A stretch of 23,245 nucleotides of DNA from a virus. Lineage: Duplodnaviria; Heunggongvirae; Uroviricota; Caudoviricetes. The notes beneath the pieces are model-generated. The model was not told the DNA's origin and ran no database searches. It saw only the letters and a program-made list of their open reading frames with translations. The position numbers and the translations under genes are program-made. The stretch is taken from IMG/VR virus record IMGVR_UViG_2718217709_000004. One strand, written 5' to 3'. Positions 1 to 18,752 of the stretch are shown here, one piece after another. Numbering within the stretch: position 1 is the first letter of the stretch; each line of letters starts with the position of its first letter.

Positions 1-68
1 TCTCTTTTAACTGATTTGTTGTGCGAGCATTATGTGCAGTTAACGGCTCACTAGCTAGTGAGAGTTCC

Positions 69-103
69 AAAAAGAAACCCCGCAGTTTTTACGCTGCGGG
101 GTT
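69..103 (-). terminator. rho-independent terminator downstream of the hok-like gene
   Basis: GC-rich 10-bp stem aaccccgcag (76-85) / ctgcggggtt (94-103) with an 8-nt loop; on the minus strand it is followed by a T-rich run. Confidence 0.6.
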
Positions 104-189
104 GTTATTCATGCCTATGAGATAGGGTGCCTTATCGGCCTTACCCCGGCAACCGATTGACGGGGAGTTGCCTCCCCGTCGCGGTTTCC

Positions 190-330
190 TTACTGCTTAC
201 ACTGTAAGAACGCCGCAAACTCCGCTCCCCAGAAGCTCATCCGTATTTCACACAGCGAACCGTGCAGCATCCAGATGATGAGGATTACCGTCACGCAGAA
301 CGTGATGGCCGTAAGCGATTTTTGCGACAT
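190..330 (-). CDS. hok: Hok/Gef-family type I toxin-like membrane peptide (46 aa)
   Basis: Hand translation of the minus strand gives MSQKSLTAITFCVTVILIIWMLHGSLCEIRMSFWGAEFAAFLQCKQ: one hydrophobic helix, then the SLCE(I/L) motif and an AAFLxCK tail as in HokA. AAGGAG RBS lies 6 nt upstream inside an inverted repeat that could sequester it. Too short to appear in the ORF track. Confidence 0.7.
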   Translation of the reverse strand: MSQKSLTAITFCVTVILIIWMLHGSLCEIRMSFWGAEFAAFLQCKQ

Positions 331-519
331 AGCGCTTGCTCCTTTGTTGGAGAGGCGCTAACCTATCACTTGCTAGGTTGACGGGTTAGGGCCTCGGTTA
401 AACAGAAATGTTTTCCGGGGCCTTTCCACATCCGGCCTTCGGGTATTCCCTCCGACCATCAGCCGAAAGGCACCCGCACGTAATCTATCGCTTTTTTGTT
501 ACTCCGGCAATTCTGCCTG

Positions 520-780
520 TTAATTCTGAGGTAAAGGCAAGCTCATCTGATTGTTTCCCCTGTGTGAAGCTGGCAGTTCATGCCACGGGATACCTTCTGA
601 AGAGTGAACGCCGGAGGCGTGTTTCGATGTGAATTTATGGAAAGCTTCCAGTGTTGAGAAGCATACGCCGCATTCCAGGTTGTTACACTGGTAATACTTT
701 TGCCGCACGGTGTTTGAATCATTTTCCGGACGACTGGTGCGGATACGGGCAGATGCGCCACAAAGCGGACAACGGAACAT
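520..780 (-). CDS. ogr: Ogr/Delta-type zinc-finger late gene activator
   Basis: 86-aa ORF beginning MFRCPLCGASARIRTSR...YYQCNNLEC, matching the P2 Ogr pattern MFHCPLC...HQCQNVNC (CxxC...CxxxxC). GGAGG RBS upstream of the ATG. Confidence 0.85.
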   Translation of the reverse strand: MFRCPLCGASARIRTSRPENDSNTVRQKYYQCNNLECGVCFSTLEAFHKFTSKHASGVHSSEGIPWHELPASHRGNNQMSLPLPQN

Positions 781-822
781 AGCGACCTCCCTTAACGTGG
801 TGCTGCCGCTATTCTAAGTTGC

Positions 823-1932
823 TCACTCTGTTTCCGCTATCCATTCCGGGATTTTTGCCTCAAGCTCAAGCTGCGTGGTAAAGCCGCTGTTATCAATAGT
901 GTGCTCGGCTTTTGCAATGATCCAGTCCTGATTATCAATCTCGCTTTTAAATCCTGTTACCGTACCATGCATTTCGGGGTAGAGTTCTGCACGTCCACGC
1001 GCCAGCGTGATGGAGAATGATGCGGCTCCGCGTTGTAGCTGCTGCCACTTTGCCGCCGCTGCGCGTCTTGCTGCCTGTTCGTTCTGATAGGTCTTGCGTA
1101 ACACAAACACATTGCCTTCCGCGCCTTCCATATAATCACCTTCACGGCTGCTGCTTTTCTCCTTTTTGGGTTTTGGCGGTTTGCGGCGTTTCACGCTGAC
1201 TTTTTTCTTTTTCCCGTAATTAAGATCAAGCCAGTAAGCGCGTACCCCCGTATACGCTTCGCGGTCAGCAATGCGGAACTGATGGCGATCGCCACTGCTG
1301 CGCGTGATGGCGAACGAGGGCAACGGCTGGCCCTGTGCGTTCACGCCACCGCCTGGCATGATGAATAACAGATTACCGCTTTTTACCGTAGTGATTGCGC
1401 CCAGCATTTCCGCCATGCGCGTAAGGAAGGACATGTCGCTTTCTTCGGTCTGGTCGGCGTGGTCGATTTCGATATCCATCAGCATTTCGCTGATTTGCGG
1501 TTTCAGACCATACCGATGAGCGATGGCGGATACCACACGCTCAACGGTCACATCATGCCAGGACACCTCACGTTTAACGTTAAATTCATCCCGAAAATCT
1601 GCGCTTCTGGCTGAAACAGTCAGCCTGTCCGGCGGTCCTTCGTGAGCGATTTCATCAACAATGTAAGTGCCTTTTTCTGTCAGCGGTTCTCCCTTCCAGC
1701 CAATGAGAACCGTCAGGCGCGCGCCCCGTGGCGGTAGCTGCAACTGACCATCCGCATCATCCAGCGTGATGGTGAGCTGGTCCGCCTCAAATCCCCGGTT
1801 GTCGGTCAGTGACAGGCTCATCAGGCGCTCTGCCACGCCTGACAGCGTTTTACCCTCCGCGAGAATATCAAAATCCGGCATTTTTACGGGGTCTGTGCCC
1901 TGACTGAGCAATTGCATGGTGGTGTCGGTCAT
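823..1932 (-). CDS. D: P2 gpD-like tail protein (late control gene D)
   Basis: Contains the conserved RLMSLSLTDNRGFEADQL block typical of gpD. Start placed at MTDTTMQLL (ATG 1930-1932) because a GGGAGG RBS precedes it; the ORF-track start at 2064 would add an R/S/T-rich leader. An internal start at MPDFDIL is possible. Confidence 0.8.
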   Translation of the reverse strand: MTDTTMQLLSQGTDPVKMPDFDILAEGKTLSGVAERLMSLSLTDNRGFEADQLTITLDDADGQLQLPPRGARLTVLIGWKGEPLTEKGTYIVDEIAHEGPPDRLTVSARSADFRDEFNVKREVSWHDVTVERVVSAIAHRYGLKPQISEMLMDIEIDHADQTEESDMSFLTRMAEMLGAITTVKSGNLLFIMPGGGVNAQGQPLPSFAITRSSGDRHQFRIADREAYTGVRAYWLDLNYGKKKKVSVKRRKPPKPKKEKSSSREGDYMEGAEGNVFVLRKTYQNEQAARRAAAAKWQQLQRGAASFSITLARGRAELYPEMHGTVTGFKSEIDNQDWIIAKAEHTIDNSGFTTQLELEAKIPEWIAETE

Positions 1933-2089
1933 CTGCTCCCTCCCTGTGCGGCATGGTCGCATGTGCGTGCGGAGGGGGTTACTGCTTTTTGTTGTCGCCG
2001 TGGCGAGAGAACGGCGCAGGGGTGAGATTACGCGCGTGGTGGGTGATGATTGTTGCCGAATCATTTAACGGATACAAGGGGCTGAAGCT

Positions 2090-3274
2090 ATGAGTGAAAC
2101 TCGTTTTCATGGTGCCCGTGTTACGGAAAATACCGACCTGGTAACAGCGATTAACGATGTTGATTCCAGCGTTATCGGTATCGTGGCAACGGCGGATGAT
2201 GCGGACGCGAAGCTGTTCCCGCTGAACAAGCCCACACTGCTGACCCGCGTCAATGACGTGCTGGGAAAATGCGGGACAACGGGGACGCTTTATCGTGCGC
2301 TTAAGGCCATCGCAGACCAGGTGAGTACAAAGGTGATCGTCGTTCGCGTGGCTGAACACAAAGAAGAAGACGGAAAAACGCAGGATCAACTGGTTATCGG
2401 TGGTTCTGAATCTGACGGCAGCTATACGGGGATGTATGCGCTGCTTGTTGCAGAGCAGGATGAAAGCATCGGATACCGTCCGCGTATTCTGGCCGCGCCG
2501 GAGCTGGACACGGAGGCGGTAACAAAATCCCTGTGCGTGATTGCGGGTAAACTGCGCGCGTTTGTGTATGCCTCATGTCACGGCTGTAACACGATGGCTG
2601 AGGCGATTACCTACCGCCAGAAATTCAACGAACGTGAGGTGATGCTCTTATGGCCGGACTTCATCGCCTACAACCCGAAAAGTGGCAAAAACGAAACGTT
2701 CCCCGCGCCTGCCTATGCGTGCGGCCTTCGTGCGTACATTGACCATGAGCAGGGTTGGCACAAATCGCTGTCCAACGTTCCGGTTAAAAATGTGCTGGGG
2801 ATGTCCAGGCATGTGTTCTGGTCGTTGCAGGCCGAAGACAGTGATGCCAACAGCCTCAACAACAAAGAAATCACGACCATTATTCGTCGCAACGGGTTCC
2901 GCTTCTGGGGCAACCGCACACCGGAAACGAACGCCTACATCTTTGAGGTGTATACCCGAACCGCACAGGTGCTGGCTGATTCAATTGCGGAAGCGCAGTT
3001 TGAAACCATCGATAGTCCACTGACGCCTGCGAACGTGAAGGATGTTATCAGTGCCATCAGGGCAAAACTGGATTCACTGGTGACTGCCGGGAAACTGATT
3101 GGGGCGTCGTGCTGGTATGACGTGGTGGATAACAGCACCACGAATTTACGTCAGGGGCGTGTGCGTATTCGCTACAAATATACGCCCGTTCCTCCGCTGG
3201 AAGACATGGAGCTTTACCAGTCGTTTACTGATGAATTCTTTGGTCCCGCATTTGCGGTGCTGGGAGGTGCCTGA
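2090..3274 (+). CDS. FI: tail sheath protein (P2 gpFI-like)
   Basis: 394-aa ORF of P2 FI size, immediately followed by tube, chaperone and tape measure genes; the stop overlaps the FII start (ATGA). Confidence 0.85.
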   Translation: MSETRFHGARVTENTDLVTAINDVDSSVIGIVATADDADAKLFPLNKPTLLTRVNDVLGKCGTTGTLYRALKAIADQVSTKVIVVRVAEHKEEDGKTQDQLVIGGSESDGSYTGMYALLVAEQDESIGYRPRILAAPELDTEAVTKSLCVIAGKLRAFVYASCHGCNTMAEAITYRQKFNEREVMLLWPDFIAYNPKSGKNETFPAPAYACGLRAYIDHEQGWHKSLSNVPVKNVLGMSRHVFWSLQAEDSDANSLNNKEITTIIRRNGFRFWGNRTPETNAYIFEVYTRTAQVLADSIAEAQFETIDSPLTPANVKDVISAIRAKLDSLVTAGKLIGASCWYDVVDNSTTNLRQGRVRIRYKYTPVPPLEDMELYQSFTDEFFGPAFAVLGGA

Positions 3275-3786
3275 TGGCTGTACCAAAACATCTTCGCTTT
3301 TTTACGCTGTTTGTGGATGGTGAAAACGAAGTGGGTAAGGTGACGTCCGTCACCCTGCCTAAACTGACGCGCAAAACCGACAGCTACCGGGGTGGTGGCA
3401 TGATGGGTGCGGTAAGTATTGATCTCGGTCTGGACGACTCCGCGCTTGATGCGAGCTTTGTCATGGGGGGCGCAGTTCGTGAGCTGTTCCTTAAGTATGG
3501 CGGCACGATTGACGGCACGCTACTGCGTTTTGCGGGTGAATACTACACCGATGCAGAAAGCGACCTGTATGAAGTCGAAATGCGCGGACGCGTGACGGAA
3601 ATTGATATGGGGGAAGCCAAACAGGGCGAAGCCACATCACACACTTACGCCATTAAAAACACCTACTACAAGCTGAGTGTTAACGATCGTCCGTTGTGGG
3701 AGATTGACCTGCTGAACTTCATTTACCGGAAGGACGGCAAGGACATTGTGCCCGATCGCATCCGTTCCGCGCTTGGGCTTGGCTGA
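3274..3786 (+). CDS. FII: tail tube protein (P2 gpFII-like)
   Basis: 170-aa ORF translationally coupled to FI; size and position match gpFII. Confidence 0.85.
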   Translation: MAVPKHLRFFTLFVDGENEVGKVTSVTLPKLTRKTDSYRGGGMMGAVSIDLGLDDSALDASFVMGGAVRELFLKYGGTIDGTLLRFAGEYYTDAESDLYEVEMRGRVTEIDMGEAKQGEATSHTYAIKNTYYKLSVNDRPLWEIDLLNFIYRKDGKDIVPDRIRSALGLG

Positions 3787-3840
3787 TAAGTAATATGCAG
3801 GCGGCGCAGTGCGTCGCCTCTGACTGAAAGGAGTTTCCTG

Positions 3841-4206
3841 ATGAAAGAGACGAAAAACATCGATACCGAAAACACGGTAGTTGCTGACACTGTGAAAGAA
3901 ACCAGTGAGCGTGGCGTAAAACTTACCCAACCAATTGAGCGAGGCGGCGAAAAAATCACGTATGTGGAGATCACCGGGGCTATTGAGCAGGCTGGATCTC
4001 TGCGAGATTTGTCGCTGTCTGATGTGCTGAATCTGAAAGCGGAATCCATGTTTACGCTGCTGTCACGAGTGACATCACCGCGACTGGATGAAGTGACGAT
4101 CAAAAAAATGGCATCCCGTGACTTTATTCAGTTATGTGTGGTTGCCGTAAATTTTTTGAGCGGTGCGGACTCTGGCGGGAAGAACGAACAGGCGACGGAA
4201 GCCTGA
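3841..4206 (+). CDS. E: tail assembly chaperone (P2 gpE-like)
   Basis: 121-aa acidic protein between tube and tape measure genes; carries a slippery TTTTTTG near its 3' end. Confidence 0.8.
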   Translation: MKETKNIDTENTVVADTVKETSERGVKLTQPIERGGEKITYVEITGAIEQAGSLRDLSLSDVLNLKAESMFTLLSRVTSPRLDEVTIKKMASRDFIQLCVVAVNFLSGADSGGKNEQATEA

Positions 4207-4370
4207 TCACGGTTGTGTGCTTTGAGCACATAGAAGACTTTGTGGCAGATATTGCCGTTATTTTTAACTGGTCGCCCGCCGAAATCTTCATGATGACGCC
4301 CGGCGAAGTGGTTAGCTGGCGTGAGCGGGCGGCACTTCGCAGCGGGAATGCAGACAATGAAGACTCTTGA
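3841..4370 (+). CDS. E+E' frameshift product (programmed -1 frameshift)
   Basis: Slippery heptamer T TTT TTG at 4152-4158 in the E frame; the -1 frame stays open to 4370 (same frame as track ORF 4134..4370) and ends overlapping the T start. This is the conserved chaperone frameshift arrangement. Confidence 0.65.
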
Positions 4371-7164
4371 TATCCGGGTCGCTTTCAGCGCCGTTGACAG
4401 GCTGACCCAGCCTGCCGAAAACGCCCGCCGCCTGATGGGGCAGTTTGGTGACTCCATCCAGCGAACGCAGGGGGCGATCAAAAATCTCGAGCGTCAGGCG
4501 CGTTCATTTGAGCGCGCCCGCGACGCTGTCAGTAAAGCGGATGCGGGTATCGTGAAAGCACGACGCCAGCTTAACGCCCTTAATCAGTTACAACGCACGG
4601 GTACAGTGCTCAGCGAAAAACAACAAAAGCTGATGCAGCAGTTAAGCACCCGGCTTGAACGCCTGAATGAATCGCGCACGCGGGAAATTCAGAAAATGCG
4701 GGAGCTTGGCGGAGAGCTGAAACGCCACGGCATTTCCCTGACAGGCAGCGATAACACCATCCAGCAGGCCATCAGACGCACCGAACAGTACAACAATCAG
4801 CTTGAACGCGAACGGCAGGCGCTTGCGCGTGTAACGCGGGCGCGTGAGCGGTATTCGCGCGCGCAGGAAACAGCGGGAAAACTGAAAACAGGTGGTGCAC
4901 TGGCAATTGGTGCGGCAGCGGCGGGCGGCTATGCTGCCGGGCGTTTTTTGCAGCCTGCGATCGGGTTCGGGAAAGAGATGTCCCGCGTTCAGGCACTGAC
5001 GCGAATCGACCAGAACAGCCCGCAGTTTAAGGCGCTGCGTGAGCAGGCGTTAAAACTTGGCTCTGAAACGCAGTTCACCGCAGGCGATGCCGCCAGTGGG
5101 CAGGCATTTCTGGCAATGGCTGGCTTCACACCGCAGGCCATTCAGGCTGCGCTTCCCGGCGTGCTGAGCATGGCAACGGCTGGCGGTATGGACCTTGGCG
5201 AGACGGCAGATATTGGCTCAAATATCCTGACGCAGTTCGGCCTCTCCGCTGACCAGATGGACCGGGTCGGTGACACGCTTACAGCAGTGTTTACCCGTAC
5301 TAACACTGACCTTCGCGCACTGGGCGAAACCATGAAATATGCAGGTCCGGTGGCGGGTAAGCTGGGAATATCGCTGGAGCAGGCCGCAGCGATGGCGGGC
5401 GTGCTGGCGAATATGGGTATCAGAGGGAGTGATGCCGGGACGGCAATGCGTGCCAGCCTGGCTCGTCTGGCATCACCGCCAAAGGCGGCAGCAGAAGCGC
5501 TGAAAGAGCTGGGTGTGTCCGTCTCTGATGCGAACGGCAAAATGCGCCCGATGGAAGATGTGCTGGCCGACCTTTATAAAGCCACCCGTAAATACGGGGA
5601 AGTTGACCGGGTATCGTTCTTTAAGGACATTGCCGGGGAAGAGGCTTTCACGTCGTTTATGGCTCTCGTTGATGCGGCGGGTGACGGCTCCCTGCCCAAA
5701 CTGAGAAAAGAACTTGAGGGCGCACGCGGTGAGGCTGAACGCACGGCAAAGGTTATGGCCAATAACCTTGATGGCGACCTGAAATCACTCGGCAGTGCAT
5801 GGGAAGGGCTGCGTATCCGCATTGCAGATCTGATTGATGGTCCGCTGCGTTCTGTCACGCAGTGGCTCACGCGGGTGGTCTCAAAGGTGACGGCGCTGGC
5901 ACAGGCCCATCCGGTACTGACGCGCCAGTTACTGATAGCAGGCGGTGCGCTGCTGGCAATGACTGCAACGGTTGGCTCGTTGTCGCTGGTTATTGGAGTG
6001 CTTCACGGGAAGCTGGCCACGTTGCGTCTTGGTTTTTCTCTCCTGACCGGATCAATGAATGCTGTCAGGCTCCTGCCAGCACTATGGGGAATGGTGACGG
6101 GTTCCGTTTCGTTACTGGGGGGCGCTATCGGGGCGCTGTTCAGCCCGGTCGGATTGATTGCTGCTGCGTTTGTGGCTGCGGCAGTTCTCATCTGGAAATA
6201 CTGGGAACCCATCAAGGCGTTTTATGCCGGGGTGTTCAGCGGGATTATGGAGCGGCTGGCCCCGTTACGCGAAACCTTTGAACGGTTTGGTCCTGTTTTT
6301 GACGCAATCGGAAGCGGGATAAGTCAGGTGTTTAACTGGTTTAAATCGTTGCTGTCACCGATGGAGTCCAGCAAGGAAACGCTGGATAAATGTACCAGTG
6401 CTGGCGAGATATTCGGTAACGTTCTTGGCGGTGCGTTACAGCTTGTTCTGACGCCCGCAAAAATGTTGCTGGATACGCTGGCGTGGATACTTGAAAAACT
6501 CGGTGTGCTTCCGGATGAAGCGGAAAGGGCGAGAAAGAAAATCGAAGACGCACAGCGTGCGGCCATTCTTCAGGACAAGGTTGCTCTGTTTCAGGGAGAC
6601 ATTGCGAAAATCAATCCGCCGAAGTCTGCGGAAAATGGCAATGGCACCGGAGGTGATAAACCCAAAGACAATAAACCGCTCACAGACAGCAATACCGGTA
6701 CGCTACGCAGACTCAGCAAAATTGCTGATAACACAGGTAAGCTGGTTGATGAGACGAAAAAACGTATTGGCCCCGGCGATATTGTCTTTAAGAACCTGCC
6801 CCGCGCACTTGCCGTTCGTGGGGAGTGGCAGGAGCGGAAGATTGTGCAGGTCAGTAAGCCTGCCCCCGCAATTAATATCACACCCGTGGTCCCGGCTCCG
6901 CTGCCTCCGGCGCTGGTCCCTGTTGTTGCGGCCAGCTCCCGCCCGGTGGCGGAGGCCATACGATCTCCAGTGGCATCAGTTCCTGTAACTTCCCGTAACC
7001 GGGAGCCTGTTGCCTCCGGATTTGGTGGTGAAATTCATGTTCATCTGCATAACGTTGTTACGCAGAATCCCCGCGAACTGGCGAAACTGGTCGGTGAAAT
7101 GGTCAGGGCAGAAATGGAACGGCGCGCCCGTGCCGGGCGTGGCAGTTTTTACGATAAAGATTGA
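4357..7164 (+). CDS. T: tail tape measure protein (P2 gpT-like)
   Basis: Long ORF (about 940 aa) with an N-terminal coiled-coil region, central hydrophobic/Gly-Ala-rich segments and a Pro-rich C-terminus. Start is uncertain between 4321, 4348 and 4357; 4357 (MKTLDIRV) overlaps the E' stop. Confidence 0.85.
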   Translation: MKTLDIRVAFSAVDRLTQPAENARRLMGQFGDSIQRTQGAIKNLERQARSFERARDAVSKADAGIVKARRQLNALNQLQRTGTVLSEKQQKLMQQLSTRLERLNESRTREIQKMRELGGELKRHGISLTGSDNTIQQAIRRTEQYNNQLERERQALARVTRARERYSRAQETAGKLKTGGALAIGAAAAGGYAAGRFLQPAIGFGKEMSRVQALTRIDQNSPQFKALREQALKLGSETQFTAGDAASGQAFLAMAGFTPQAIQAALPGVLSMATAGGMDLGETADIGSNILTQFGLSADQMDRVGDTLTAVFTRTNTDLRALGETMKYAGPVAGKLGISLEQAAAMAGVLANMGIRGSDAGTAMRASLARLASPPKAAAEALKELGVSVSDANGKMRPMEDVLADLYKATRKYGEVDRVSFFKDIAGEEAFTSFMALVDAAGDGSLPKLRKELEGARGEAERTAKVMANNLDGDLKSLGSAWEGLRIRIADLIDGPLRSVTQWLTRVVSKVTALAQAHPVLTRQLLIAGGALLAMTATVGSLSLVIGVLHGKLATLRLGFSLLTGSMNAVRLLPALWGMVTGSVSLLGGAIGALFSPVGLIAAAFVAAAVLIWKYWEPIKAFYAGVFSGIMERLAPLRETFERFGPVFDAIGSGISQVFNWFKSLLSPMESSKETLDKCTSAGEIFGNVLGGALQLVLTPAKMLLDTLAWILEKLGVLPDEAERARKKIEDAQRAAILQDKVALFQGDIAKINPPKSAENGNGTGGDKPKDNKPLTDSNTGTLRRLSKIADNTGKLVDETKKRIGPGDIVFKNLPRALAVRGEWQERKIVQVSKPAPAINITPVVPAPLPPALVPVVAASSRPVAEAIRSPVASVPVTSRNREPVASGFGGEIHVHLHNVVTQNPRELAKLVGEMVRAEMERRARAGRGSFYDKD

Positions 7165-7176
7165 GGAGTCATGGCC

Positions 7177-7665
7177 ATGATGATGATCTACGGCATGTTT
7201 GTTTTTGAGCTGCGCACGCTGCCGCATCAGCAGTTACAGCAAAACAAAAGCTGGCGGCATGTGAAAAATGAACGCGTTAACCGTTCAGCAAGCTGGCAGT
7301 ATATCGGTGCAGGTGATGATCGCATCGTTCTTTCTGGTGTGCTTTATCCTGAAATTACAGGTGGCGAAGTGTCGCTGTCGCTGCTGACCACGCAGGCGTA
7401 TACAGGACGACCCTGGCCTTTGATTGATGGCGTCGGGCAGATTTACGGCATGTATGTCCTGACCGGAACGAACACGACCCGTTCCGAGTTTGATCGCTAC
7501 GGTAAGGCGAAAAAGATAGAATTTTCACTGACCCTTGAACGCTGTGATGAGGATTTGCGGGAGCGCCTGCAATCCTCATCGTTCAGCGATATGCTGTCCG
7601 GCTTCAAAGATAAAGTGACATCATCCCTTAACAGCGCGGCCAGTTCAGTTAAAGGGCTGTTCTGA
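7177..7665 (+). CDS. U: tail protein gpU-like
   Basis: Motifs VLSGVLYPEITGG and WPLIDG...IYGMYV parallel P2 gpU. Start chosen at the second or third ATG (7177) for spacing from the GAGGAG RBS at 7163-7168. Confidence 0.8.
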   Translation: MMMIYGMFVFELRTLPHQQLQQNKSWRHVKNERVNRSASWQYIGAGDDRIVLSGVLYPEITGGEVSLSLLTTQAYTGRPWPLIDGVGQIYGMYVLTGTNTTRSEFDRYGKAKKIEFSLTLERCDEDLRERLQSSSFSDMLSGFKDKVTSSLNSAASSVKGLF

Positions 7666-7682
7666 TTTAATGCTGGCCACTC

Positions 7683-7714
7683 ATACCTGGTAATAAGTGG
7701 CCAGTCTTAACACT
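7683..7714 (+). terminator. hairpin downstream of U (possible terminator)
   Basis: 9-bp stem ctggccact / agtggccag with a 14-nt loop; the downstream tract is only weakly T-rich. Confidence 0.35.
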
Positions 7715-7827
7715 CACCATTTGATTGCACCCGCGTTAACGATTTGTTACTGGGTATCAGACATGCTGGATAGCCAGTAGAAACATACCATTAAAATTAT
7801 TACAATAATTGGTCACATGATTATCTT

Positions 7828-8391
7828 ATGCTGAATAATAGAGATATGAATATTAATGAACTTAAAGACTGTATTCACTATGAAGTAATCGGTAGCGAGC
7901 GTCCTTTCTCCTGGCGAAAGGCAATTGTTCGCGCAATAAAACATAGAAGACTTCGTTATTTATTTTGGTGGCGCATAGCCAAATACCTTTTTGATAAAGG
8001 CGGATACTGCCGGAAGATTGCGGGGAAAATAGAACGTTTCATTCTTGATAAATATAATGTAACAGTCCCTTTAACTGTAAATATAGGGAAAGGCTTTGAT
8101 ATTTCTTATCTCAACAGTGTTGTTATCGGTCACAAAGTAACAATCGGTGAAAATTGTTCAATAAAACCGGGGGTAACTATTGGGCTACGTGGTGATTTTA
8201 ATGATATGGATATTGTTATAGGACATAATGTGACCATTGGTTGTAATGCCACCATTCTTGGTGGCAAAGTGCGTATAGGAAACAATGTCACAATAGGTGC
8301 TCATGCATTGGTATTGCATGATATTCCTGATGATTCAACATTCATCACTAAATTTCAGTCTGAAGTTATCTGCTCGTCCTCCCGCACATAA
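7828..8391 (+). CDS. hexapeptide-repeat (left-handed beta-helix) acetyltransferase, serine acetyltransferase/WcaB-like; cargo gene
   Basis: Repeated [LIV]-G-x-x-x-x hexads ([21 protein letters not shown]...[34 protein letters not shown]) and an N-terminal [13 protein letters not shown] segment typical of this acetyltransferase class. The region 7680-8400 is markedly AT-rich against GC-rich phage flanks. Start codon uncertain (7828 or 7846). Confidence 0.75.
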
Positions 8392-8972
8392 CCCTGATTC
8401 ATCAGCTCTGGCCATACGATATCCGGAGCTGTACTGGTGTCAATTCTACTCACTAATACTCTGTATTTTCTCCAGGAATCCAGTTGTGAATTTTCCTCGT
8501 TTGTTGCTATTTCAAGATTAACTGCATCCTGCAGAATTGCGATGTTATCTGTTGCCTCCTGGATCAACCTTGCCTTTTTCTCTTCCGCTTCCCGTATCCG
8601 AAACAGCTTTTCTGCTTCCTCATCCTTCACCCAGGATACGCCGTCCCACTTCTGATATTCCCCTGCTGGCGACAACCAGGTGACATTCTCTGGTAGCGGT
8701 CCGGGTTCAGAAATAAACAACGCGTCCCCCGATGCCACGTCATAGACCGTTTTACCACGATGGTCTTCAACAATATTCCACGATTCATTTTCACTGTTAA
8801 AAATTGCCACAAAGCCAGCAGGAATTTCCGGTGGGGCGATATCTGTAGAATTAGCTGGCAGCCCTGTATGAGGTGGAATATATGCGTCACCTTCACCAAT
8901 AAACTCATTAGTTCCGGCCAGCAGGTTATAAATTTTTACAGTACGTGATTGTTCACTCATTCTGAATGCCAT
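8355..8972 (-). CDS. G: tail fibre assembly chaperone (P2 gpG / Tfa-like)
   Basis: 205-aa ORF directly downstream of the tail fibre gene with the C-terminal [23 protein letters not shown] signature. Its last ~12 codons overlap the acetyltransferase gene in antisense. Confidence 0.8.
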
Positions 8973-11629
8973 TATGCAAGCCTCACAATATAATTAAATG
9001 CGATGTTTTTAACGGTGTTTTCCGCGTTACCAGCAGCGTTAACGGTGATGGTATGTCCATGTGAACCAATCGCAACAGAGTGCGTATGAGCGCCAATACC
9101 AACAGTGTGTGCATGTGCCCCAGCACTTGTAGCGGTACCTGATACTGAGTGGGTATGTGCGCCAGAAGAAGGCACAGTTCCATTCCCCACCACCGTGCCA
9201 CTTGATGCACCATCCAGCCAGTCGAAATTCATACCGCCACTGTTTGGTCTCCTTAATGGAACGGTATGAGTATGTGCGCCAGCACTATTTGCAGTACCAG
9301 ATACATTGTGGGTATGTGCACCTGTGTTATTCGTTGATTTAGTACCGTAATCAAACGAAGATGTGGTTTTCGTACCCAAATCCGTATTGGATGCGCTGGC
9401 GCTGTGGGTGTGCGATTTAATGCCATCCTGTTCCAGAGACAATACGTCCCGACCACTGGCGGGTTTGCCCTTGATTGTCCAGCCACGCATATCCGGGATC
9501 ACGCCTGACGGATAAGCGGCTGCAAGTTTCGGGTATGCAGATTTGTCAAAAGTCTGTCCCTGCATCAGGGCGTAACCAGACGGCACAGTATCTGATGGCC
9601 ACGGCAGCGGAACACCTGGCGGAAACGCTTCAATATTTGCCGAGCCGTCAAATTTTACGCCGTTAATTGTCCTTGCCGTTTTCAGCTTTGTTGCTGTAGC
9701 AGCATTGCCGGATAGTTCGCCTGAAAGACCACCGCTGAATGTCTGTTTCGCCGCCCATGTCTGAGCTTCGTCGATAATTGGCACACGTCTTGTCGTAATC
9801 GTGCGGCTTCCCGGATTTCCTGAAATGCGAACCATAAAAAAGCGGTAATTCGCTTTACTTACAGTGCTGCGCCATACATGCATTGAGCGCCCCGTACCAG
9901 AATCATCACTCGGACCAACTGCGATGTTTATCAGGTTGCCATCAATGACGCCCCAGTCCATACCGTCGGGAATATTGGTCATGTTATCAAGCCGAACGGT
10001 TATCAGACTGCCCGGCACAAAATCGTAGGTCTGCCAGTCCAGGCTGGTGAGTTTTGCCACTGCGCCACCGATACCCAGATTCAGGGGAAGTGAATAAGAT
10101 GTGTAAACTTCCCGCCATTCGCTCCACGAGCTGCCGGTATAAACGCGCTCAAACGTGCGACCTTTAAGGGTTGCACCTGTTCCGGCGGTTGTATAACGTT
10201 GCCATACGTTAACGCCATCAAAGCGCCTCAGCACTTCCAGAATACCGAGTACAGTCACGCCGTTTCCGTCCAGTATTGGACCATTGGTCGCTTTACCTGT
10301 AACGCTGTAAATACCTGGTGAGGTTACATCATTCAAATCACCGTCGTAATAACGGCTTTCTGACTGGTAGCCCACTCTTGACCACGGCTCCCATTGTGGG
10401 TTCTCTGCATCCCACGAGGCCGAAAGACAGCGAACATAAACATTTCCACGGCGGGTCGTGTAACGCTGCGTTCGCGAGTAACCACCACCTTCAAGAACTT
10501 CAAGGAGTCCCTGACCATAACTTCCTTCTTCCGGATAGTTGCGGTCAAATGAAGCGATTGAGCCACTACTGTTTCGCCATAAACCAAGATGCTCTGCGCC
10601 TCCGAGCGTGTTCAGGTCAATGGTTGTGCTCAGGGGGCGTGTTGCAGACTGAACCTGACGCCAGTAACTCCACGGACCGTCTGAACCATTCCATGTGCCA
10701 GAAAGGTTGCGCATATAAACATTGCCTGTTCTGGTGGTGTAACGCTGCATTCCTGCAAAATTACCGCCATTGAATACCTCCAGTACACCGACTGCACCGT
10801 CTTCAGGGAAATTTTTAGCAGCCGTCGCGTTAGTGGATGTAGCTTTAGACCAGACGCCAAGATAAGCCTTAACGGGACCAAATGTATTCAAGTCAGCATC
10901 AAGCGGCATTTCGCCATTGTTTTTCATAAACGTCAGGCTGGTAACGCCAACATTGTCCAGAAAAGCGCCCTTATCTGGAATATCGTCACCGTTCTGGTCT
11001 TTCTGCATACGTTTTTCAGCATTGTCATAGGCTGCTTTTACTGCCTTTGGCGTTGCCGCCAGCTCTTCACTGGTGCTGTTTGTTGCGCTACTTAACTGAG
11101 TAAAACCTTTTTCTGTCAGCGTGGCGTCAGGATGGCGGCGGGATTGCTCATGCTCTGCGATTTTGTCATCGACGTAATCCTGCGTCGCCATCACTGTGCT
11201 GGCATCAATACTCAGCTCAACGGACGCTACGTTGCTGACAGTAATAACCATGCGGCAGGTCTGCGCGCGCCCGGAGCCTTCAGCGAGTTCAGGCTTATAG
11301 CTTTCCGCCATGTTAGCGACCGCAATCAGTGTTCCGGCATCGTCATACAGACCCAGCTCACGCATCCAGAAGCCGCCCACTTCTGGCGGTACAACCAGTT
11401 CAGCCACGATATAGTTTTTATTCTTGTTATCCACGCTGACTTTATTCAGAGCGTGACGCCAGACCTCATGCACCAGTTTCGTCTGACCGGCATCCGGCAC
11501 CGGCAATTTGCCATTACCGTCACCCACGGCCATTGCAGACAGAGTTACTTTTTTCCCGCCGGGGACAGTGGCGGCTGCCAGCTTCGCGGCTCCGGCAGTA
11601 GTGATAGCGGTTTTAAATTTCGTGCTCAT
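8972..11629 (-). CDS. H: tail fibre protein (P2 gpH-like)
   Basis: 885-aa ORF with a conserved P2-type N-terminal region, three internal repeat units (QRYTTRxGNVY...W..W) and a C-terminal region with iterated GAHTHxV HxH motifs, followed by a Tfa gene. Confidence 0.85.
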
Positions 11630-11639
11630 TGTTTCTCAC

Positions 11640-12167
11640 TTATCCGGGATAAACAGTAATAACATCACCATCACAGACCACACCGCCTGTATACAGATAG
11701 CCGGGAATGTCCTGGATAATGTTCAGGCCGATAAGGTGGCGACTTGCGGGTTTGGCATCGGCAATCAGCCGTTCCATTTCCAGATACATTTCCTCGGTCA
11801 CACCACTGTCCAGCGTGCCAACATCAACCTTGAATGTTCCGGGTTCGCCGTCGAACTCCCACCACTCAGACACGCGAATGAGGTATCCCAGCGGCTCAAT
11901 GGCCCGGCGCAGTGCGCTGATGGTCCCTTTGTGTCGGTGTATCAGCCATGCATCACGAATAACCTGTCGCTTTGTCTCTTCCGGCCAGTTGCGATCCCAG
12001 CGGTCAACGGAAAATGCCCAGGCGAGATAAGGCAGCAGATGCACCGGGCAGGTGTCCGGTGACCACAGCGTGTTGAGGTCTACCGGGATGTTTGTAATGC
12101 GCGCTCCGACAGCTTCGGCGCAACGCATGAAATTGCTGGCTGATGGTGGTAACAGTGAATTACTCAT
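11640..12167 (-). CDS. I: baseplate assembly protein gpI-like
   Basis: 175 aa from MSNSLLPP; the ATG overlaps the stop of the upstream J fragment. Size and position match gpI. Confidence 0.8.
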   Translation of the reverse strand: MSNSLLPPSASNFMRCAEAVGARITNIPVDLNTLWSPDTCPVHLLPYLAWAFSVDRWDRNWPEETKRQVIRDAWLIHRHKGTISALRRAIEPLGYLIRVSEWWEFDGEPGTFKVDVGTLDSGVTEEMYLEMERLIADAKPASRHLIGLNIIQDIPGYLYTGGVVCDGDVITVYPG

Positions 12168-12474
12168 TACGCCCACCTTCGCTGATGGTGAATGACTCAC
12201 AGCGCGCCGCCTGTATGTCGCTGATGGCCATATTCTGTGTGGGTTCGATTATCTCCACGCGTTGCACACCGTGCACATGCAGTGCGGCAGCAATGGCGGA
12301 CAACGCCACGTCCTGACCGATAAGCCCCTGCTCAGCCAGCCACTTCCTGAACGACGATTCAGCCGCAGCCAGAATAGGTTCGGATTCCGGGCCGGGATAA
12401 AAGTACAGTTTTGCATTCAGCCGCCATGTCACGATTCTGGCGCTCTGACGGGCATGGCGAGAGATAGTGCTCAA
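12160..12474 (-). pseudogene. J: baseplate gpJ C-terminal fragment (5'-truncated)
   Basis: Only about 100 codons remain of a ~300-aa protein (...ILAAAESSFRKWLAEQGLIGQDVALSAIAAALHVHGVQRVEIIEP...). No J N-terminus, W, V, S or R genes lie upstream. Confidence 0.7.
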
Positions 12475-12619
12475 CGTTCACGCGGGCAGCGTAAACATCC
12501 GGGTTGAAGTTCTCGGCGGCTTCACGCAGATGTACCGGGCTGATTTCGCGGCCATCAACAGTTGATCCGGAGACAGCCACGCGAAACTTTTTGCGGGATG
12601 TCTTTTTTTCATTAGCCAT
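12359..12619 (-). pseudogene. O: capsid scaffold gpO N-terminal fragment fused out of frame to the J remnant
   Basis: MANEKKTSRKKFRVAVSGSTVDGREISPVHLREAAENFNPDVYAARVNVEHY parallels the P2 gpO N-terminus; GAGGGG RBS upstream. After about 50 codons the frame runs through J-derived sequence and stops at 12359. Confidence 0.7.
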
Positions 12620-12773
12620 AGTTTTTGCCCCTCTGACTGGTTCTTCAGTCATGATGGCAAAGCGTAACAGGCTGATACAAAGGGCTTTTGTTGTAAGAAA
12701 ACGGCCAGAACAGGGGGTTAAGGAGAACGGTTTCGCGCGCGGGTAATCTTCCTGTAATTACTCAGGGGGAGCA

Positions 12774-14036
12774 ATGATTCAGGACGCTTTTGTGCGCCAG
12801 CGTGCGCGGCAACTTTACTGGCAGGGTTATCCGCCCGCAGAAATATCACGTCTGATGGGAATAAACCCGAACACGATTTATGCGTGGAAAAAACGCGACC
12901 AGTGGGATGAAACGCCCCCCGTGCAGCGTGTCACGCAGTCCATCGATGCGCGCCTCATCCAGCTTACTGAAAAACAGAATAAAACAGGCGGTGACTTTAA
13001 GGAAATAGACCTGCTGACCCGGCAGCTTAAAAAGCTGCATGATGGCCAGCCGGATGTGATGGCCGCAGGAAAGAAAGGCCGGGCGAAAAAACTTAAAAAT
13101 CATTTCACGCCGGAACAGATTGCCGCACTGCGGGAAAAAATCATCAGCAGGCTGGAGTGGCATCAGCGGGGCTGGTTTGACTCCCTGACACTTTGCAGGG
13201 AAGCCGGGATACGTAACAGGATGATCCTGAAATCCCGACAGATTGGGGCGACCTGGTATTTTGCACAGGAAGCTCTGCTGATGGCGCTGCGTGACGATGT
13301 GGCGCAACCTTACCAGCGTAACCAGATTTTTTTGTCTGCGTCGCGTCGTCAGGCGTTCCAGTTTAAAAGCATTATTCAGAAGGTCGCGGCTGAAGTTGAT
13401 GTGGAGCTGAAAGGGGGCGATAAAATCATCCTCTCCAACGGCGCAGAGCTGCATTTTCTCGGCACTTCTGCTGCGTCGGCACAGTCCTATACGGGCAATT
13501 TTTATTTTGATGAATTTTTCTGGGTCAGTCGCTTTGCTGAACTGCGCAAGGTGGCTGGCGCTATGGCAACCCTCAGCGGACTGCGGCGCACCTACTTCTC
13601 CACGCCATCCACCGAAACGCACGAGGCGTACGCCTACTGGAACGGCGACCGCTGGAACGAGAAAAAGGCCTCGCATAAACGCCAGCGTTTTTCTGTGGAC
13701 TGGAAAACGCTGCATAACGGGCTTATCTGCCCTGACCGGACTTGGCGGCAAATTGTCACGCTGGAAGATGTGGTTAATCACGGCTGGAAACACACCGATA
13801 TCGACGAAATTCGTGATGAAAACACCGAAGACGAGTTCCTCAATCTCTATATGTGTGAGTTTGTCCGCGAAGGGGAATCGGCATTTAACCTGAATATCCT
13901 GATTGGCTGCGGTGTTGACGGATACGACGACTGGAAAGACTGGAAACCTTTTGCTCCCCGCCCGATGGGGAATCGTCCGGTATGGATTGGGTATGACGCA
14001 AACGGCAGCAGTGGCAACGGCGACATGCCAGCTTGA
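12774..14036 (+). pseudogene. P: terminase large (ATPase) subunit gpP, 3'-truncated
   Basis: N-terminal two-thirds of a P2-type large terminase (MIQDAFVRQRARQLYWQGYPPAEISRLMGINPNTIYAWKKRDQWDE...). The ORF ends at 420 aa and the A gene stop is only about 110 bp away, so no portal Q or cos can follow. Confidence 0.8.
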
Positions 14037-14101
14037 TGTTGGTGGAGCCGTCGTCGATACAAATTTTCATGTCGCTTTTCCTTATGTTGATTAATTAATC
14101 G

Positions 14102-14137
14102 TTTACGGGATTCTGAAATCCCGTTTTTGCCTGTTTT
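14102..14137. repeat. hairpin-containing direct repeat, copy 1 (intergenic, P remnant / A junction)
   Basis: tttacgggattctgaaatcccgtttttgcctgtttt: 7-bp stem acgggat / atcccgt followed by a T-run, acting as a plus-strand terminator-like element. Confidence 0.6.
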
Positions 14138-14146
14138 ATGCGCGCT

Positions 14147-16969: not shown

Positions 16970-16975
16970 AGTGAT

Positions 16976-17341
16976 TTACTTCGTCATGCCATTCAGGGTG
17001 TCGCGGCAGACTGTAGCCAGCCGCTGAATTTCCAGCACGGTGTCTTCTGTGTCGGCATGGCGATGTGTGATGCGGATGCTGTCGGCAATCACATCGACGA
17101 TTGCAGAGGATGGGCGCTGGTAAATGCCAATAACGGACGGGGTGCCACCTTCAATGCGGTAAAGCCTGTAATTTCCCTCGTGGCTGTCAATCATGTAGCG
17201 ACCATCAATAACAATCTTTCCGTCAGCGAGCTGCGGTACAGGCAGGGATTTCAGGTACATGTCATAACGATCACGCACGCGAGCGGCAAGATCTCGTTCT
17301 GTGTTGAGCAGGTATTCAAGAAAGTCGTTGGCGAGAATCAT
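16976..17341 (-). CDS. hypothetical early protein (121 aa) immediately upstream of A
   Basis: Intact ORF whose stop lies 6 nt before the A start; family not recognised. Confidence 0.5.
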   Translation of the reverse strand: MILANDFLEYLLNTERDLAARVRDRYDMYLKSLPVPQLADGKIVIDGRYMIDSHEGNYRLYRIEGGTPSVIGIYQRPSSAIVDVIADSIRITHRHADTEDTVLEIQRLATVCRDTLNGMTK

Positions 17342-17413
17342 TGCGGCAATCCTCTTGTTACAGATGTGCGAAGGCCTCCCGCCGCAAGGTGCAGGAAAGG
17401 CCCGGAACAGGAA

Positions 17414-17644
17414 TTAATGGAGTTTGTTTTGCTGCTGGATGAGCTGTTGAAGCTCGTGCAGATCATCCGCCAGATAGCTGAAAACAGAGGCGGAATAAAT
17501 GTTTGATAGTGCGTGGCTGCGCTCATGCAGCATATTGATGTGCATGATTTGCGCGACGCGTGATGCGCGGGAAAGTCTGTGGTTGATTTCAGTCTGGATG
17601 TGACGACGCTCCGCGATAGTGCGGTGCTGTTTGCGGTCTGCCAT
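17414..17644 (-). CDS. hypothetical small early protein (76 aa)
   Basis: AAGAGG RBS about 7 nt upstream of the ATG; charged, helix-rich sequence; preceded by a structured leader. Confidence 0.5.
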   Translation of the reverse strand: MADRKQHRTIAERRHIQTEINHRLSRASRVAQIMHINMLHERSHALSNIYSASVFSYLADDLHELQQLIQQQNKLH

Positions 17645-17819
17645 GGTGTGGCCTCTTTGCTCGGTGATAGAAATAACTCACCATCCAGAGTTGAGAATCT
17701 CGGGGTGGCGAGACGTACAGGGTTCTCAACACCGGAGAGCAAAGAATCCGGCCCGACCGAAGTCGGCCCCGTACGCCCCGCCATAATTCTGACGCGAAAA
17801 AGACGTGGCAATACAGTGC

Positions 17820-17842
17820 GCACAAAAAAACCGCTTGCGCGG
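17820..17842 (-). terminator. rho-independent terminator within the early region (minus strand)
   Basis: On the minus strand: aaccgc-gcaa-gcggtt stem-loop (GNRA-type loop) followed by a run of seven T. Confidence 0.5.
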
Positions 17843-17966
17843 TTATGCGCTTTGCTCTGTATCGGGTTGAGAATCCCGGCACCCGTTTTATGAGCTGCAG
17901 CGGAAATGTAACCTGACCGATTGAGGCATGGCAAGCGGTTTTTTTGTGTGTGCATGTTCTGGTTTC

Positions 17967-18529: not shown

Positions 18530-18729
18530 CTGCGTGGCTCCTGTACCTGTCGGATAAGATTCACCCGCGCCACGTTGGTGGCGCAGAAGTAAGTGCCGTC
18601 AGTGAGGTAGATGTGGTGTGCATCCTTTTCCGAACGATGTTTGTCGATAGTGGTAATCAGGCGTTCGTCGACCTCGTATTCGCGCCCTCTGGAGGTAAAG
18701 CGAACGACGGGAAAATGCTTAATTGCCAT
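18526..18729 (-). CDS. hypothetical early protein (67 aa)
   Basis: AAAGGGGG RBS upstream of MAIKHF; stop overlaps the next start. Confidence 0.5.
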   Translation of the reverse strand: MAIKHFPVVRFTSRGREYEVDERLITTIDKHRSEKDAHHIYLTDGTYFCATNVARVNLIRQVQEPRR

Positions 18730-18752
18730 TGCGCCCCCTTTGTCCAGTAACC

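Follow-up and report, generated by a model that had tools for sequence, protein, structure and literature searches.

A probable hok/Sok-type toxin–antisense RNA module, apparently lacking the mok frame, beside ogr in a defective P88-like prophage

The window, by which we mean the whole 23,245-nt stretch of viral DNA analysed (IMG/VR record IMGVR_UViG_2718217709_000004), carries near its first position, adjoining an ogr-like gene, a minus-strand open reading frame of 46 aa (190–330; MSQKSLTAITFCVTVILIIWMLHGSLCEIRMSFWGAEFAAFLQCKQ) whose product contains the strings SLCEIR and AAFLQCK. The initial annotation had assigned this ORF to the Hok family from its architecture (a single transmembrane helix, SLCEIR, and an AAFLxCK tail), and this was borne out by (i) a match to the Pfam family HOK_GEF (PF01848; 30.1 bits against a gathering threshold of 22, E = 3.7e-7, with residues 7–44 on positions 5–42 of the 42-position profile), (ii) a match to phrog_251, "MokW-like host killing" (82.8 bits, E = 2.5e-23), and (iii) a single hydrophobic stretch at residues ∼4–27 (Kyte-Doolittle 19-residue means of 1.5–2.15 over residues 1–30, a measure of hydropathy only). 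The peptide is identical to RefSeq WP_000078920.1, "Hok/Gef family protein", and contains all the residues of the Hok logo, namely C12, T14, L26, C27, E28, and E37 (C16, T18, L30, C31, E32, and E41 in the numbering of bioRxiv 10.1101/2025.08.07.668861); among these, C12, T14, C27, and E28 are invariant when the peptide is aligned with HokA and R1 Hok. Variability at codon positions 1, 2, and 3 was 0.256, 0.134, and 0.325, respectively, among 18 homologues, the pattern of a coding gene, which, as judged from these alignments, shows purifying selection on hok. The NCBIfam scores fell below the curated cutoffs for both the HokA equivalog NF007290 (35.8 versus 89) and the Hok subfamily NF007279 (23.6 versus 73), so the window Hok belongs to neither the HokA nor the R1-type subfamily; a PADLOC search returned no match. 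A peptide that differs from the window Hok at V15A alone (72_1621) was among 45 homologues tested for toxicity, and the three constructs named there as non-toxic do not include it (bioRxiv 10.1101/2025.08.07.668861); a one-residue variant of the window Hok is, according to that 2026 preprint, toxic.

The whole hok module (Table 1) runs along the minus strand from about 510 to 67, beyond the 190–520 originally assigned to it. The strong terminator that had been noted after hok does exist, but its stem lies at 103–76, so the earlier limits omit a 3' UTR with functional parts, namely a stem-loop (186–151), an fbi element (140–125), and the terminator itself. An Rfam search at the gathering threshold gave no hok/sok match, and at that threshold the Rfam sok model misses this common Hok subfamily. 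In an E-value search, the covariance-model check suggested for this locus, RF01794 did align over its full length (model positions 1–157) to 475–320 on the minus strand with E = 2.6e-9, but at 47.3 bits, below its gathering threshold of 59. Folding of 475–70 gave a minimum free energy (MFE) of −178.4 kcal/mol (z = −6.5 versus shuffles). Across the 18 homologues, 87.7% of the cells in the hok mRNA structure were paired, versus 40–44% with the partners slid, and double changes occurred at 20 pairs, a number equalled by none of 500 shuffles.

Table 1. Features of the predicted module, with window coordinates and basis of assignment
Feature	Coordinates	Strand	Basis or remark
hok promoter, predicted	482–510; −35 TTGCCG (510–505), 17-nt spacer, −10 TAGATT (487–482)	−	Positional homology
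Full-length hok mRNA, predicted +1 at G475, 3' end past the terminator	70–475	−	Rfam alignment and fold; ends predicted
tac element GGGUGCCUUUCGGCU (mRNA nt 1–15)	461–475	−	Pairs with 140–125 in the full-length MFE structure
Leader ORF MWKGPGKHFCLTEALTRQPSK, 21 codons from AUG +45	366–431	−	Probably not a conserved gene
ucb-like box GGAAAGGCCCC (nt 49–59)	417–427	−	Pairs with tac in the truncated fold
Sok-like antisense RNA, predicted, ∼56 nt	371–426	+	∼18-nt single-stranded 5' tail, GC-rich hairpin 388–424, UUUCC; ends predicted
GAGG at the position of the R1 mok Shine-Dalgarno sequence	392–395	−	Aligned to RF01794 GaGGC
Hypervariable loop (nt 91–110) of the hairpin that Sok is predicted to target	366–385	−	Variability profile
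Sok-like promoter, predicted	336–364; −35 TTGCTC (336–341), 17 nt, −10 TAACCT (359–364)	+	Positional homology
hok SD-sequestering hairpin	330–360; anti-SD CUCC 352–349, SD GGAG 342–339, A of AUG 330	−	MFE and alignment
hok CDS, 46 aa	190–330; stop TAA 192–190	−	HOK_GEF and phrog_251 matches; WP_000078920.1
3' stem-loop directly after the stop codon	151–186; core hairpin 180–159	−	Helix 15
fbi element ...GGCCGAUAAGGCACCC (nt 336–351)	125–140	−	Pairs with tac
Intrinsic terminator of hok mRNA	67–103; stem 103–76, tail UUUCUUUUU, U tail to ∼67	−	Also a hairpin on the plus strand

The candidate hok promoter was not called by a generic sigma-70 scan of window positions 1–900, which found no promoter on either strand, because just 8 of its 12 consensus positions match. 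Its −10 nevertheless keeps the form TANNNT in all homologues (TAGATT, TAAATT, TACAGT, TAGAAT, or TACATT), though their upstream contexts differ, and ends 6 nt ahead of G475, a geometry that matches TATGAT-GTGCCC-G in R1, where the hok −10 box is named in PMC9841398.

The hok ribosome-binding site had been described as buried in an inverted repeat, and both GGAG and A330 indeed fall inside the MFE hairpin. This is helix 8 of the hok mRNA, whose 11 pairs are formed in 94.9% of cells across the 18 homologues, with wobble-compatible changes only. The two ends of the message are brought together in silico by 15 tac–fbi pairs, which close the full-length MFE structure, recur in the MFE structure of all 18 homologues, and are formed in 92.3% of cells. 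Within them, AAGGCACCC of fbi complements GGGUGCCUU perfectly over 9 nt, and GGGUG of tac is invariant; the 18 homologues show no double compensatory change in this pairing, only invariance and wobble changes. Homology to the Stx-phage copies stops at the edge of fbi (window 125).

The AAGGCCCCG portion of the ucb-like box is invariant in the homologue alignment. In the full-length fold, the GCCCC part of this box pairs with the GAGG region, and in the MFE structure computed for a truncated RNA (nt 1–325), nt 1–11 of tac pair with nt 49–59 (427–417); G2 pairs with nt 57–58 in 14 of the 18 truncated homologues. The window MFE had also suggested that removal of fbi alone would expose the hok SD through GAGGC–GCCUC pairing. 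We dropped this mechanism because the ensemble unpaired probabilities are nearly unchanged, the mean for the SD over 18 homologues moving from 0.24 to 0.29 on truncation and returning to 0.24 when the footprint of Sok is blocked. Helix 15 of the 3' stem-loop has 9 pairs, of which 4 are changed on both sides, and is 99.4% paired; it corresponds to the protective last stem-loop of the truncated R1 hok mRNA (PMC9841398).

Within the leader, non-coding variability peaks in the loop of the hairpin that Sok is predicted to target (mean pairwise difference 0.32–0.41, against 0.08–0.10 in its nearly invariant flanks). This loop and the 5' tail of the candidate antisense RNA are complementary. We infer a Sok-like gene at about 336–426 on the plus strand. 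In the interval in which an antisense promoter had been anticipated (plus strand, 330–420), the candidate occupies the place that TTGCGC-17-TATCCT takes on the antisense strand in an R1-type locus, but it matches the consensus at only 6 of 12 positions and was missed by the generic scan. Its −10, TAACCT, is kept in 16 of the 16 homologues listed, and its −35 reads TTGCTC, TTGACT, or TTGCCT at 17–18 nt in 15 of these 16; the mRNA complement AGGTTAG is invariant (18 of 18). Since the structure of the mRNA places constraints on these conserved bases as well, conservation alone cannot prove the promoter, and positional homology is what both promoter predictions (hok and Sok-like) rest on. The antisense RNA folds at −24 kcal/mol (z about −3.0). 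Folded singly, 16 homologues each gave a 55–61-nt antisense RNA with its own hairpin and differing upper-stem sequences. These single folds tell more than a joint RNAalifold structure for the 17 distinct sequences, in which indels put the upper stem out of register and only a poor consensus (−9.4 kcal/mol, one covarying pair) resulted.

Mok and sok had not been resolved by eye: a Sok-like candidate could be placed, whereas an ORF scan of the 18 homologues found mok absent. In the window, no ORF beginning with ATG, GTG, or TTG crosses the hok ATG, and such ORFs were found in only 5 of the 18 homologues, at differing starts. No allele has any of these start codons 5–9 nt past GAGG, where the window reads CCCUAAC-CCG; as a positive control, the same script locates mok at ATG +112 in the R1-type locus. 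K-12 hokA was uninformative on this question because IS150 splits the locus. We therefore file the locus as hok/Sok-type without mok, not as hok/mok/sok, because no frame crosses the hok ATG. As far as these alignments can tell, a conserved mok frame is missing from this 46-aa Hok subfamily, its sole departure from the R1 paradigm.

The module is similar to hok/mok/sok (parB) of plasmid R1 in (i) its toxin, which is of the same Pfam family; (ii) the tac–fbi end pairing, the ucb-like box, GAGG, and a dcb/anti-SD region that overlaps the antisense −10 (PMC9841398); (iii) the 3' order of protective stem-loop, fbi, and terminator (PMC9841398); (iv) the position of the candidate antisense promoter, TTGCTC-17-TAACCT in the window against TTGCGC-17-TATCCT in R1; and (v) a predicted hok −10 of the form TANNNT lying 6 nt ahead of a G start. 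It differs from R1 in that the window Hok is only 33% identical and has 46 rather than 52 aa, no mok frame follows GAGG, and the GGAG–AUG spacing of hok is 8 nt, versus 11 nt in the R1-type sequence. Moreover, the window module is phage-borne, whereas that of R1 is plasmid-borne, and its Rfam score is below gathering.

A hok/Sok type I system carried by a prophage is also represented by hokW–sokW of the Stx2 prophage Sp5 (E. coli O157 Sakai), for which toxicity and neutralization by a cis-antisense RNA with a promoter of its own have been shown. That system depends in part on RNase III and Hfq; once the prophage is induced, it makes lysis faster and raises phage release twofold (PMC8621323). 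HokW, however, is another paralogue, with 51 aa (MKQQKAM...) and a leader that starts GGGTGCTTGAGGCTATCTG; the preprint assigns it to the HokD-like cluster 35. We rejected the identification of the Stx-phage homologue as hokW, since the primers in PMC8621323 place hokW at a different locus; the Sp5/VT2-Sakai copy homologous to the window, with 81% identical DNA, lies downstream of lom as a second locus that has no name and is unannotated in AP000363. The Chuche and Stx-phage alleles are the "cluster 72" peptides 72_1621 (V15A relative to the window) and 72_1589, respectively. Their cluster is one of high abundance, and both were cloned to assay toxicity under arabinose induction, neither being among the three constructs named as non-toxic, by Escalera-Maurer et al. 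(bioRxiv 10.1101/2025.08.07.668861), whose study covered the coding sequence only and explicitly excluded Mok, Sok, and mRNA structure.

P88 gp52 and Chuche CDS0012 ("MokW-like host killing") are the same gene as the window hok, lying directly after an ogr-like regulator in DNA that is 95–97% identical. The P88 gp52 peptide is identical to the window Hok, whereas the Sok-target loop reads ATATCTACCTTAAGC in P88 and CCCGTCAACCTAGC in the window. Homology to both phages stops at 67–69, the end of the terminator, beyond which Chuche has com and a DNA methyltransferase and the window's genome has an unrelated 93-aa ORF. HokA of E. coli K-12, the best NCBIfam match (NF007290), shares the pattern W-M...SLCE...AAFLxCK at 41% identity, but the window peptide scores far below the equivalog cutoff, and the K-12 locus is split.

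The locus is most probably an ordinary addiction module that pairs a Hok-family toxin with a predicted antisense RNA, and its toxin gene already has annotations in RefSeq and GenBank phage records; the enrichment of Hok in prophages has been reported previously, and a near-identical peptide has already been assayed for toxicity. We consider it very probable that ∼510–67 on the minus strand constitutes a complete hok/Sok-type type I module, which a defective P88-like prophage integrated at leuZ carries as accessory cargo, with ogr on one side and its att end on the other. In the mechanism that we propose, a weak promoter would give rise to a hok mRNA of ∼400 nt from G475, in which, according to the in silico folds and their conservation, tac would pair with fbi and which would be inert because its ribosome-binding site and start codon are held in a hairpin. 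By analogy with R1, 3' trimming to the stem-loop at 186–151 would remove fbi, upon which the 5' end would refold onto the GGAAAGGCCCC box and expose the hypervariable-loop hairpin, as the truncated-RNA fold supports. A short, unstable plus-strand RNA (∼371–426) would bind this loop by its 5' tail and extend the duplex, after which, as in R1 and hokW–sokW, RNase III would cleave the mRNA and it would be lost. Should antisense synthesis end, through prophage loss or host transcription shut-off, the stable mRNA would be translated into a 46-aa inner-membrane peptide that would kill or arrest the cell. We think that hok is initiated directly through its own GGAG (8 nt from AUG) after the hairpin opens, with no overlapping mok, unlike in R1. 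The benefit to the phage would likely be prophage retention; keeping other phages out, or quicker lysis upon induction, may add to it. We further propose, tentatively and at somewhat less than even chances, that the 46-aa "cluster 72" Hok represents a widespread, mok-independent hok/Sok variant in which Sok would act on a toxin having its own Shine-Dalgarno sequence solely via mRNA refolding and/or RNase III cleavage, leader-peptide coupling being dispensed with, and in which the hypervariable loop and the matching Sok 5' tail would form a specificity code that would allow up to nine copies per genome without cross-talk.

Translation of hok could alternatively be coupled to the leader ORF at 431–366, acting as a displaced, non-overlapping equivalent of mok, such that a ribosome ending at UGA 368–366 would unwind the SD hairpin (360–330) at its base and Sok would block or cleave within the ORF; we regard this as unlikely. 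An AUG at about +45, with GAAGG before it, is present in 16 of the 18 homologues, the window ORF stops 8 nt short of the SD hairpin, and its codons 2–21 are covered by the predicted antisense RNA. Further, R1 requires mok translation only as far as the hok SD (PMC9841398), and the leader ORF spans the hok ATG in 2 of the 18 alleles. This share, however, is about that expected by chance for one open frame in three, and the ORF ranges from 1 to 78 codons in varying frames, with the AUG directly followed by a stop in 3 alleles and missing in 2. In the Stx-phage alleles the ORF stops 57–78 nt before the hok ATG; no frame is conserved, because leader lengths differ by non-multiples of 3; and the SD spacing of the leader ORF is only 4 nt. 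The AUG, moreover, lies inside the conserved tac/ucb stem, which could by itself account for its conservation, and the leader ORF is probably not a conserved gene.

The element that carries the module is, judging from its Pfam matches (Ogr_Delta, the zinc-finger late activator, 52.4 bits, next to Phage_GPD, 62.7 bits; the P2-type tail family Tail_P2_I, 176.6 bits) and its nucleotide identity of 95.5–96.7% to P88 and P884B11 over 69–820, a P2-like (Peduoviridae, P88-like/Xuanwuvirus) prophage. It is heavily deleted, with most of its head and packaging genes gone, so the module could be silent in this prophage. Such decay would fit a view of the locus as an inactive relic, unexpressed or non-toxic, that hitch-hikes like the K-12 chromosomal hok loci, which have been inactivated by IS elements or mutations; hokA of K-12 is disrupted by IS150, and the homologues in E. 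albertii pEA5_1 and in Stx2_EH2011 are degenerate, with deletions in the CDS. We nonetheless find a relic quite improbable: the ORF, SD, tac, fbi, 3' stem-loop, and terminator are all intact in the window, the peptide is that of the free phage P88, and the DNA has the stated identity of 95–97% to the functional phages P88 and Chuche. The codon-position variability likewise indicates purifying selection, and toxicity has been reported for the one-residue variant.

In P2, ogr is usually the last gene before att. The initial annotation had allowed for either prophage cargo at the ogr-proximal end or an adjacent host locus, with the att junction at roughly 340–520. The former was upheld by the ogr–hok order in the free phages P88, Chuche, and Xuanwuvirus P884B11 (95–97% identity), an arrangement that is also found in prophages at other integration sites, beside serS and flk. 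In the chromosome of E. coli B2C, which is 100% identical to window 1–11941, the att direct repeat comprises the 3' half of the leuZ tRNA-Leu gene plus the 3'ETS, with the copy on the ogr side ∼754–877 bp beyond the left end of the window (nearer end ∼754). A host origin of the ORF, plausible a priori from its place beyond ogr, gained no evidence in its favour and is refuted, given that the att repeat lies outside the window and not at 340–520, and that the module occurs within free phages and moves with ogr to other integration sites. The uninfected leuZ site of K-12 is without this hok locus. For annotation, the module limits are corrected to ∼510–67, a predicted and so far unannotated antisense gene is placed, and the prophage edge is set at leuZ.

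The same DNA module is present in 1749 of 5426 complete E. coli genomes, where it is annotated as "Hok/Gef family protein"; a mok-less subfamily in about one-third of E. coli genomes offers a small, testable point to the field of type I toxin regulation. An alignment-based search of genome contigs gave five loci, three of which are labelled as a Planococcaceae MAG, Vagococcus, and Xanthomonas pisi and which we take to be contaminating E. coli DNA.

The 46-aa ORF that had been read as a Hok/Gef-like toxin matches Pfam HOK_GEF (30.1 bits, E = 3.7e-7; threshold 22) and phrog_251, 'MokW-like host killing' (82.8 bits), and scores under the curated cutoffs of both the NCBIfam HokA and Hok models. 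By hydropathy, the peptide contains a single hydrophobic helix, and it retains all of the residues conserved across Hok peptides in the published logo, namely Cys12, Thr14, Leu26, Cys27, Glu28, and Glu37. Codon-position variability among 18 homologues was highest at the third position (0.325) and lowest at the second (0.134), as expected of a coding gene. Many E. coli chromosomes match window bases 1-820 at 100% identity, and in them the ORF is annotated as WP_000078920.1, 'Hok/Gef family protein'. Taken together, the family matches, conserved residues, codon pattern, and existing annotation establish that the Hok observation is real and already annotated.

The initial annotation had offered two origins for the locus, prophage cargo or an adjacent host locus with an att junction at roughly 340-520. 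Identity to E. coli B2C is 100% over window 1-11941 and 99.99% over window 14024-23245, and the window end coincides exactly with the phage integrase stop. The B2C element is flanked on both sides by a direct repeat (295-418 and 29256-29382 of chromosomal locus L017) that covers the 3' half of leuZ tRNA-Leu and its 3'ETS, and the empty site is present in K-12. Because this repeat brackets the element, the ogr-side junction lies ∼754-877 bp left of window position 1; comparison with the uninfected site thus places att outside the window and removes the proposed junction. Further, the free phages P88, Chuche, and Xuanwuvirus P884B11 carry the module directly after an ogr-like gene (95-97% identity), and it stays with ogr in prophages that have integrated next to serS and flk. 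Stx phages also have it downstream of lom, and other lambdoid prophages have it between gpJ and the tail-fibre genes. These contexts rule out the host-locus option and show that the module is phage cargo (a moron). The module occurs in 1749 of 5426 complete E. coli genomes, and a single genome can hold as many as nine copies.

What lies between the hok terminator and att varies. In B2C it is a 93-aa ORF lacking a Pfam match (WP_071529678.1; L017 890-1171), next to window position 1 on its left; in phage Chuche and strain 8479 it is com with a DNA methyltransferase; and in strain 4/1-1 hok is the final gene before host serS. In the L017 stretch 29256-31572 of B2C, a further integrase (30373-31572) and a further island follow directly past the integrase-side repeat, so leuZ seems to be occupied by two elements in tandem.

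Homology shared among genomic contexts runs from ∼window 496 to exactly 125, and the unit is therefore larger than the 190-520 first assigned, which covered the hok ORF and left out the 3' third of the locus. The predicted hok -10 keeps its TANNNT form in every context and has the same geometry as the TATGAT of plasmid R1 hok (6 nt before G). The Rfam sok model (consensus starting with GGGUGC and ending in AUG) recognises the hok leader: the covariance search suggested earlier gave a full-length alignment on the hok strand at 475-320 (E = 2.6e-9), with a score of 47.3 bits, under the gathering threshold of 59.

Features of the hok locus and other prophage elements (window positions)
Feature	Position	Strand	Remarks
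hok ORF	190-330	minus	46 aa, MSQKSLTAITFCVTVILIIWMLHGSLCEIRMSFWGAEFAAFLQCKQ
Predicted hok -10	487-482	minus	TAGATT; TANNNT form, 6 nt before G475 (predicted +1)
hok SD hairpin	360-330	minus	Predicted fold; buries GGAG (342-339) and A of AUG
3' stem-loop	186-151	minus	GC-rich, after stop codon
Intrinsic terminator	103-76	minus	Predicted
Predicted Sok-like promoter	336-341, 359-364	plus	TTGCTC, 17-nt spacer, TAACCT; positional match to R1-type locus
C4 antisense RNA	17701-17788	minus	Rfam 78.5 bits, above gathering
isrK Hfq-binding RNA	17824-17898	minus	Rfam 59.5 bits, above gathering
Hexapeptide-repeat acetyltransferase	7828-8391	plus	Between tail genes and tail-fibre assembly gene

In silico, the RNA from 475-70 folds at -178.4 kcal/mol (z = -6.5), with the 5' end (tac, nt 1-15) paired to the 3' element fbi (nt 336-351) through a perfect GGGUGCCUU/AAGGCACCC match. 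The buried RBS and the terminator noted by eye both recur in the predictions (table). Across the 18 homologues, 87.7% of alignment cells were paired, versus 40-44% with partners slid, with values of 99.4% for the 3' stem-loop (four compensated pairs), 94.9% for the SD hairpin, and 92.3% for tac-fbi (changes only invariant or wobble), the paired percentage being inflated because the tested structure came from the window sequence. Both-sided changes occurred in 20 pairs, a number reached by none of 500 shuffles. In RNA truncated before fbi (nt 1-325), the minimum free energy (MFE) fold has the 5' end paired instead with GGAAAGGCCCC (nt 49-59), a predicted refolding like the R1 tac/ucb switch, with G2 paired to nt 57-58 in 14 of the 18 homologues. 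The MFE fold of the truncated window RNA hints at GGAG exposure; the ensemble calculation did not support exposure by truncation alone, the unpaired probability rising only from 0.24 to 0.29 across the 18 homologues.

In R1, GAGG followed by AUG opens mok, and Hok is made only if mok is translated as far as the hok SD (PMC9841398). Here, the GAGG (395-392) is conserved, and no ATG, GTG, or TTG was found after it; nor does any window ORF with a standard start cross the hok ATG. Applied to an R1-type locus, the same script located mok, with its ATG at +112. Crossing ORFs occur in 5 of the 18 homologues, with three different kinds of start, and an AUG at ∼+45, within the conserved tac/ucb stem, is present in 16, where the ORFs it opens vary in frame and in length (1 to 78 codons). 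From these patterns, we conclude that this Hok subfamily lacks a conserved mok; the frame expected upstream, which had escaped detection by eye, is absent from the window. The window hok has a GGAG of its own, 8 nt from the AUG, compared with 11 nt in the R1-type sequence. In the window allele, a leader ORF stops 8 nt upstream of the SD hairpin and could possibly help to open it.

The sok RNA, likewise not made out by eye, can be placed tentatively on the plus strand, where we infer both its position and its ends. The R1-type locus has TTGCGC-17-TATCCT at the same position as the window promoter candidate, a position that overlaps the dcb region and the sequence complementary to the hok SD; the R1 Sok promoter mutation also falls in dcb (NAR 2023; PMC9841398). 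A generic scan, as proposed for 330-420, called no promoter on either strand of 1-900; the candidate matches only 6 of 12 consensus positions and was identified by position. TAACCT is present in 16 of 16 homologues among the matches listed, and its complement is invariant in all 18. The predicted RNA (∼56 nt, starting ∼7 nt past TAACCT) starts with an open 5' tail of ∼18 nt, followed by a strong hairpin (388-424) and UUUCC. Each of 16 homologues, folded singly, gave a predicted 55-61-nt RNA with its own hairpin, the upper stems differing in sequence. Within the leader, non-coding variability peaks in the predicted tail and its target (385-366), which differ between the window and P88 despite identical Hok peptides, a pattern consistent with selection for non-cross-reacting copies.

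By analogy, the locus probably works like R1 hok/sok and like hokW-sokW of the Stx2 prophage Sp5. The hokW-sokW pair has been shown to be toxic, to be neutralised by its antisense RNA, to depend partly on RNase III and Hfq, and to play a role in lysis after induction (PMC8621323). Identity with hokW was rejected, since HokW has 51 aa, is HokD-like, and follows a different leader. The Sp5 (VT2-Sakai) homologue of the window locus is a second one, distinct from the published hokW-sokW: a 46-aa Hok downstream of lom, unannotated in AP000363 (L004 2501-2875). In a 2026 preprint, Escalera-Maurer et al. (bioRxiv 10.1101/2025.08.07.668861) catalogued Hok peptides, found them enriched in prophages, and set aside Mok, Sok, and mRNA structure. 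Their 'cluster 72' holds the Stx-phage allele as well as that of Chuche, which differs from the window by V15A. The set of 45 tested included both, and its only non-toxic constructs were three others. The window locus is a genuine, complete-looking Hok/Sok-type module, ordinary and already annotated, with the lack of mok as its only mildly unusual feature. Hok ORFs with 74-100% amino acid identity to the window peptide and E. coli-like flanks also occur in assemblies labelled Planococcaceae MAG UBA3378, Vagococcus sp. WN89Y, and Xanthomonas pisi DSM 18956 (L018, L019, and L021), most likely through E. coli DNA contamination.

Elsewhere, C4 and isrK adjoin each other upstream of a 121-aa ORF and a gpA-like replication endonuclease (14147-16969), and make up an RNA immunity element of the P1/P7/P4 type within a P2-like prophage. 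This prophage is defective (window 11640-14070). Tail protein I (11640-12200) adjoins a short gpO scaffold fragment (12359-12652), and the terminase large-subunit ORF (12774-14036) is cut at the next deletion, which leads straight into the replication region. Relative to B2C, itself deleted, the window lacks a further ∼4 kb, including portal and ParM-like genes. The acetyltransferase, annotated in B2C as a serine acetyltransferase, is probably another moron.
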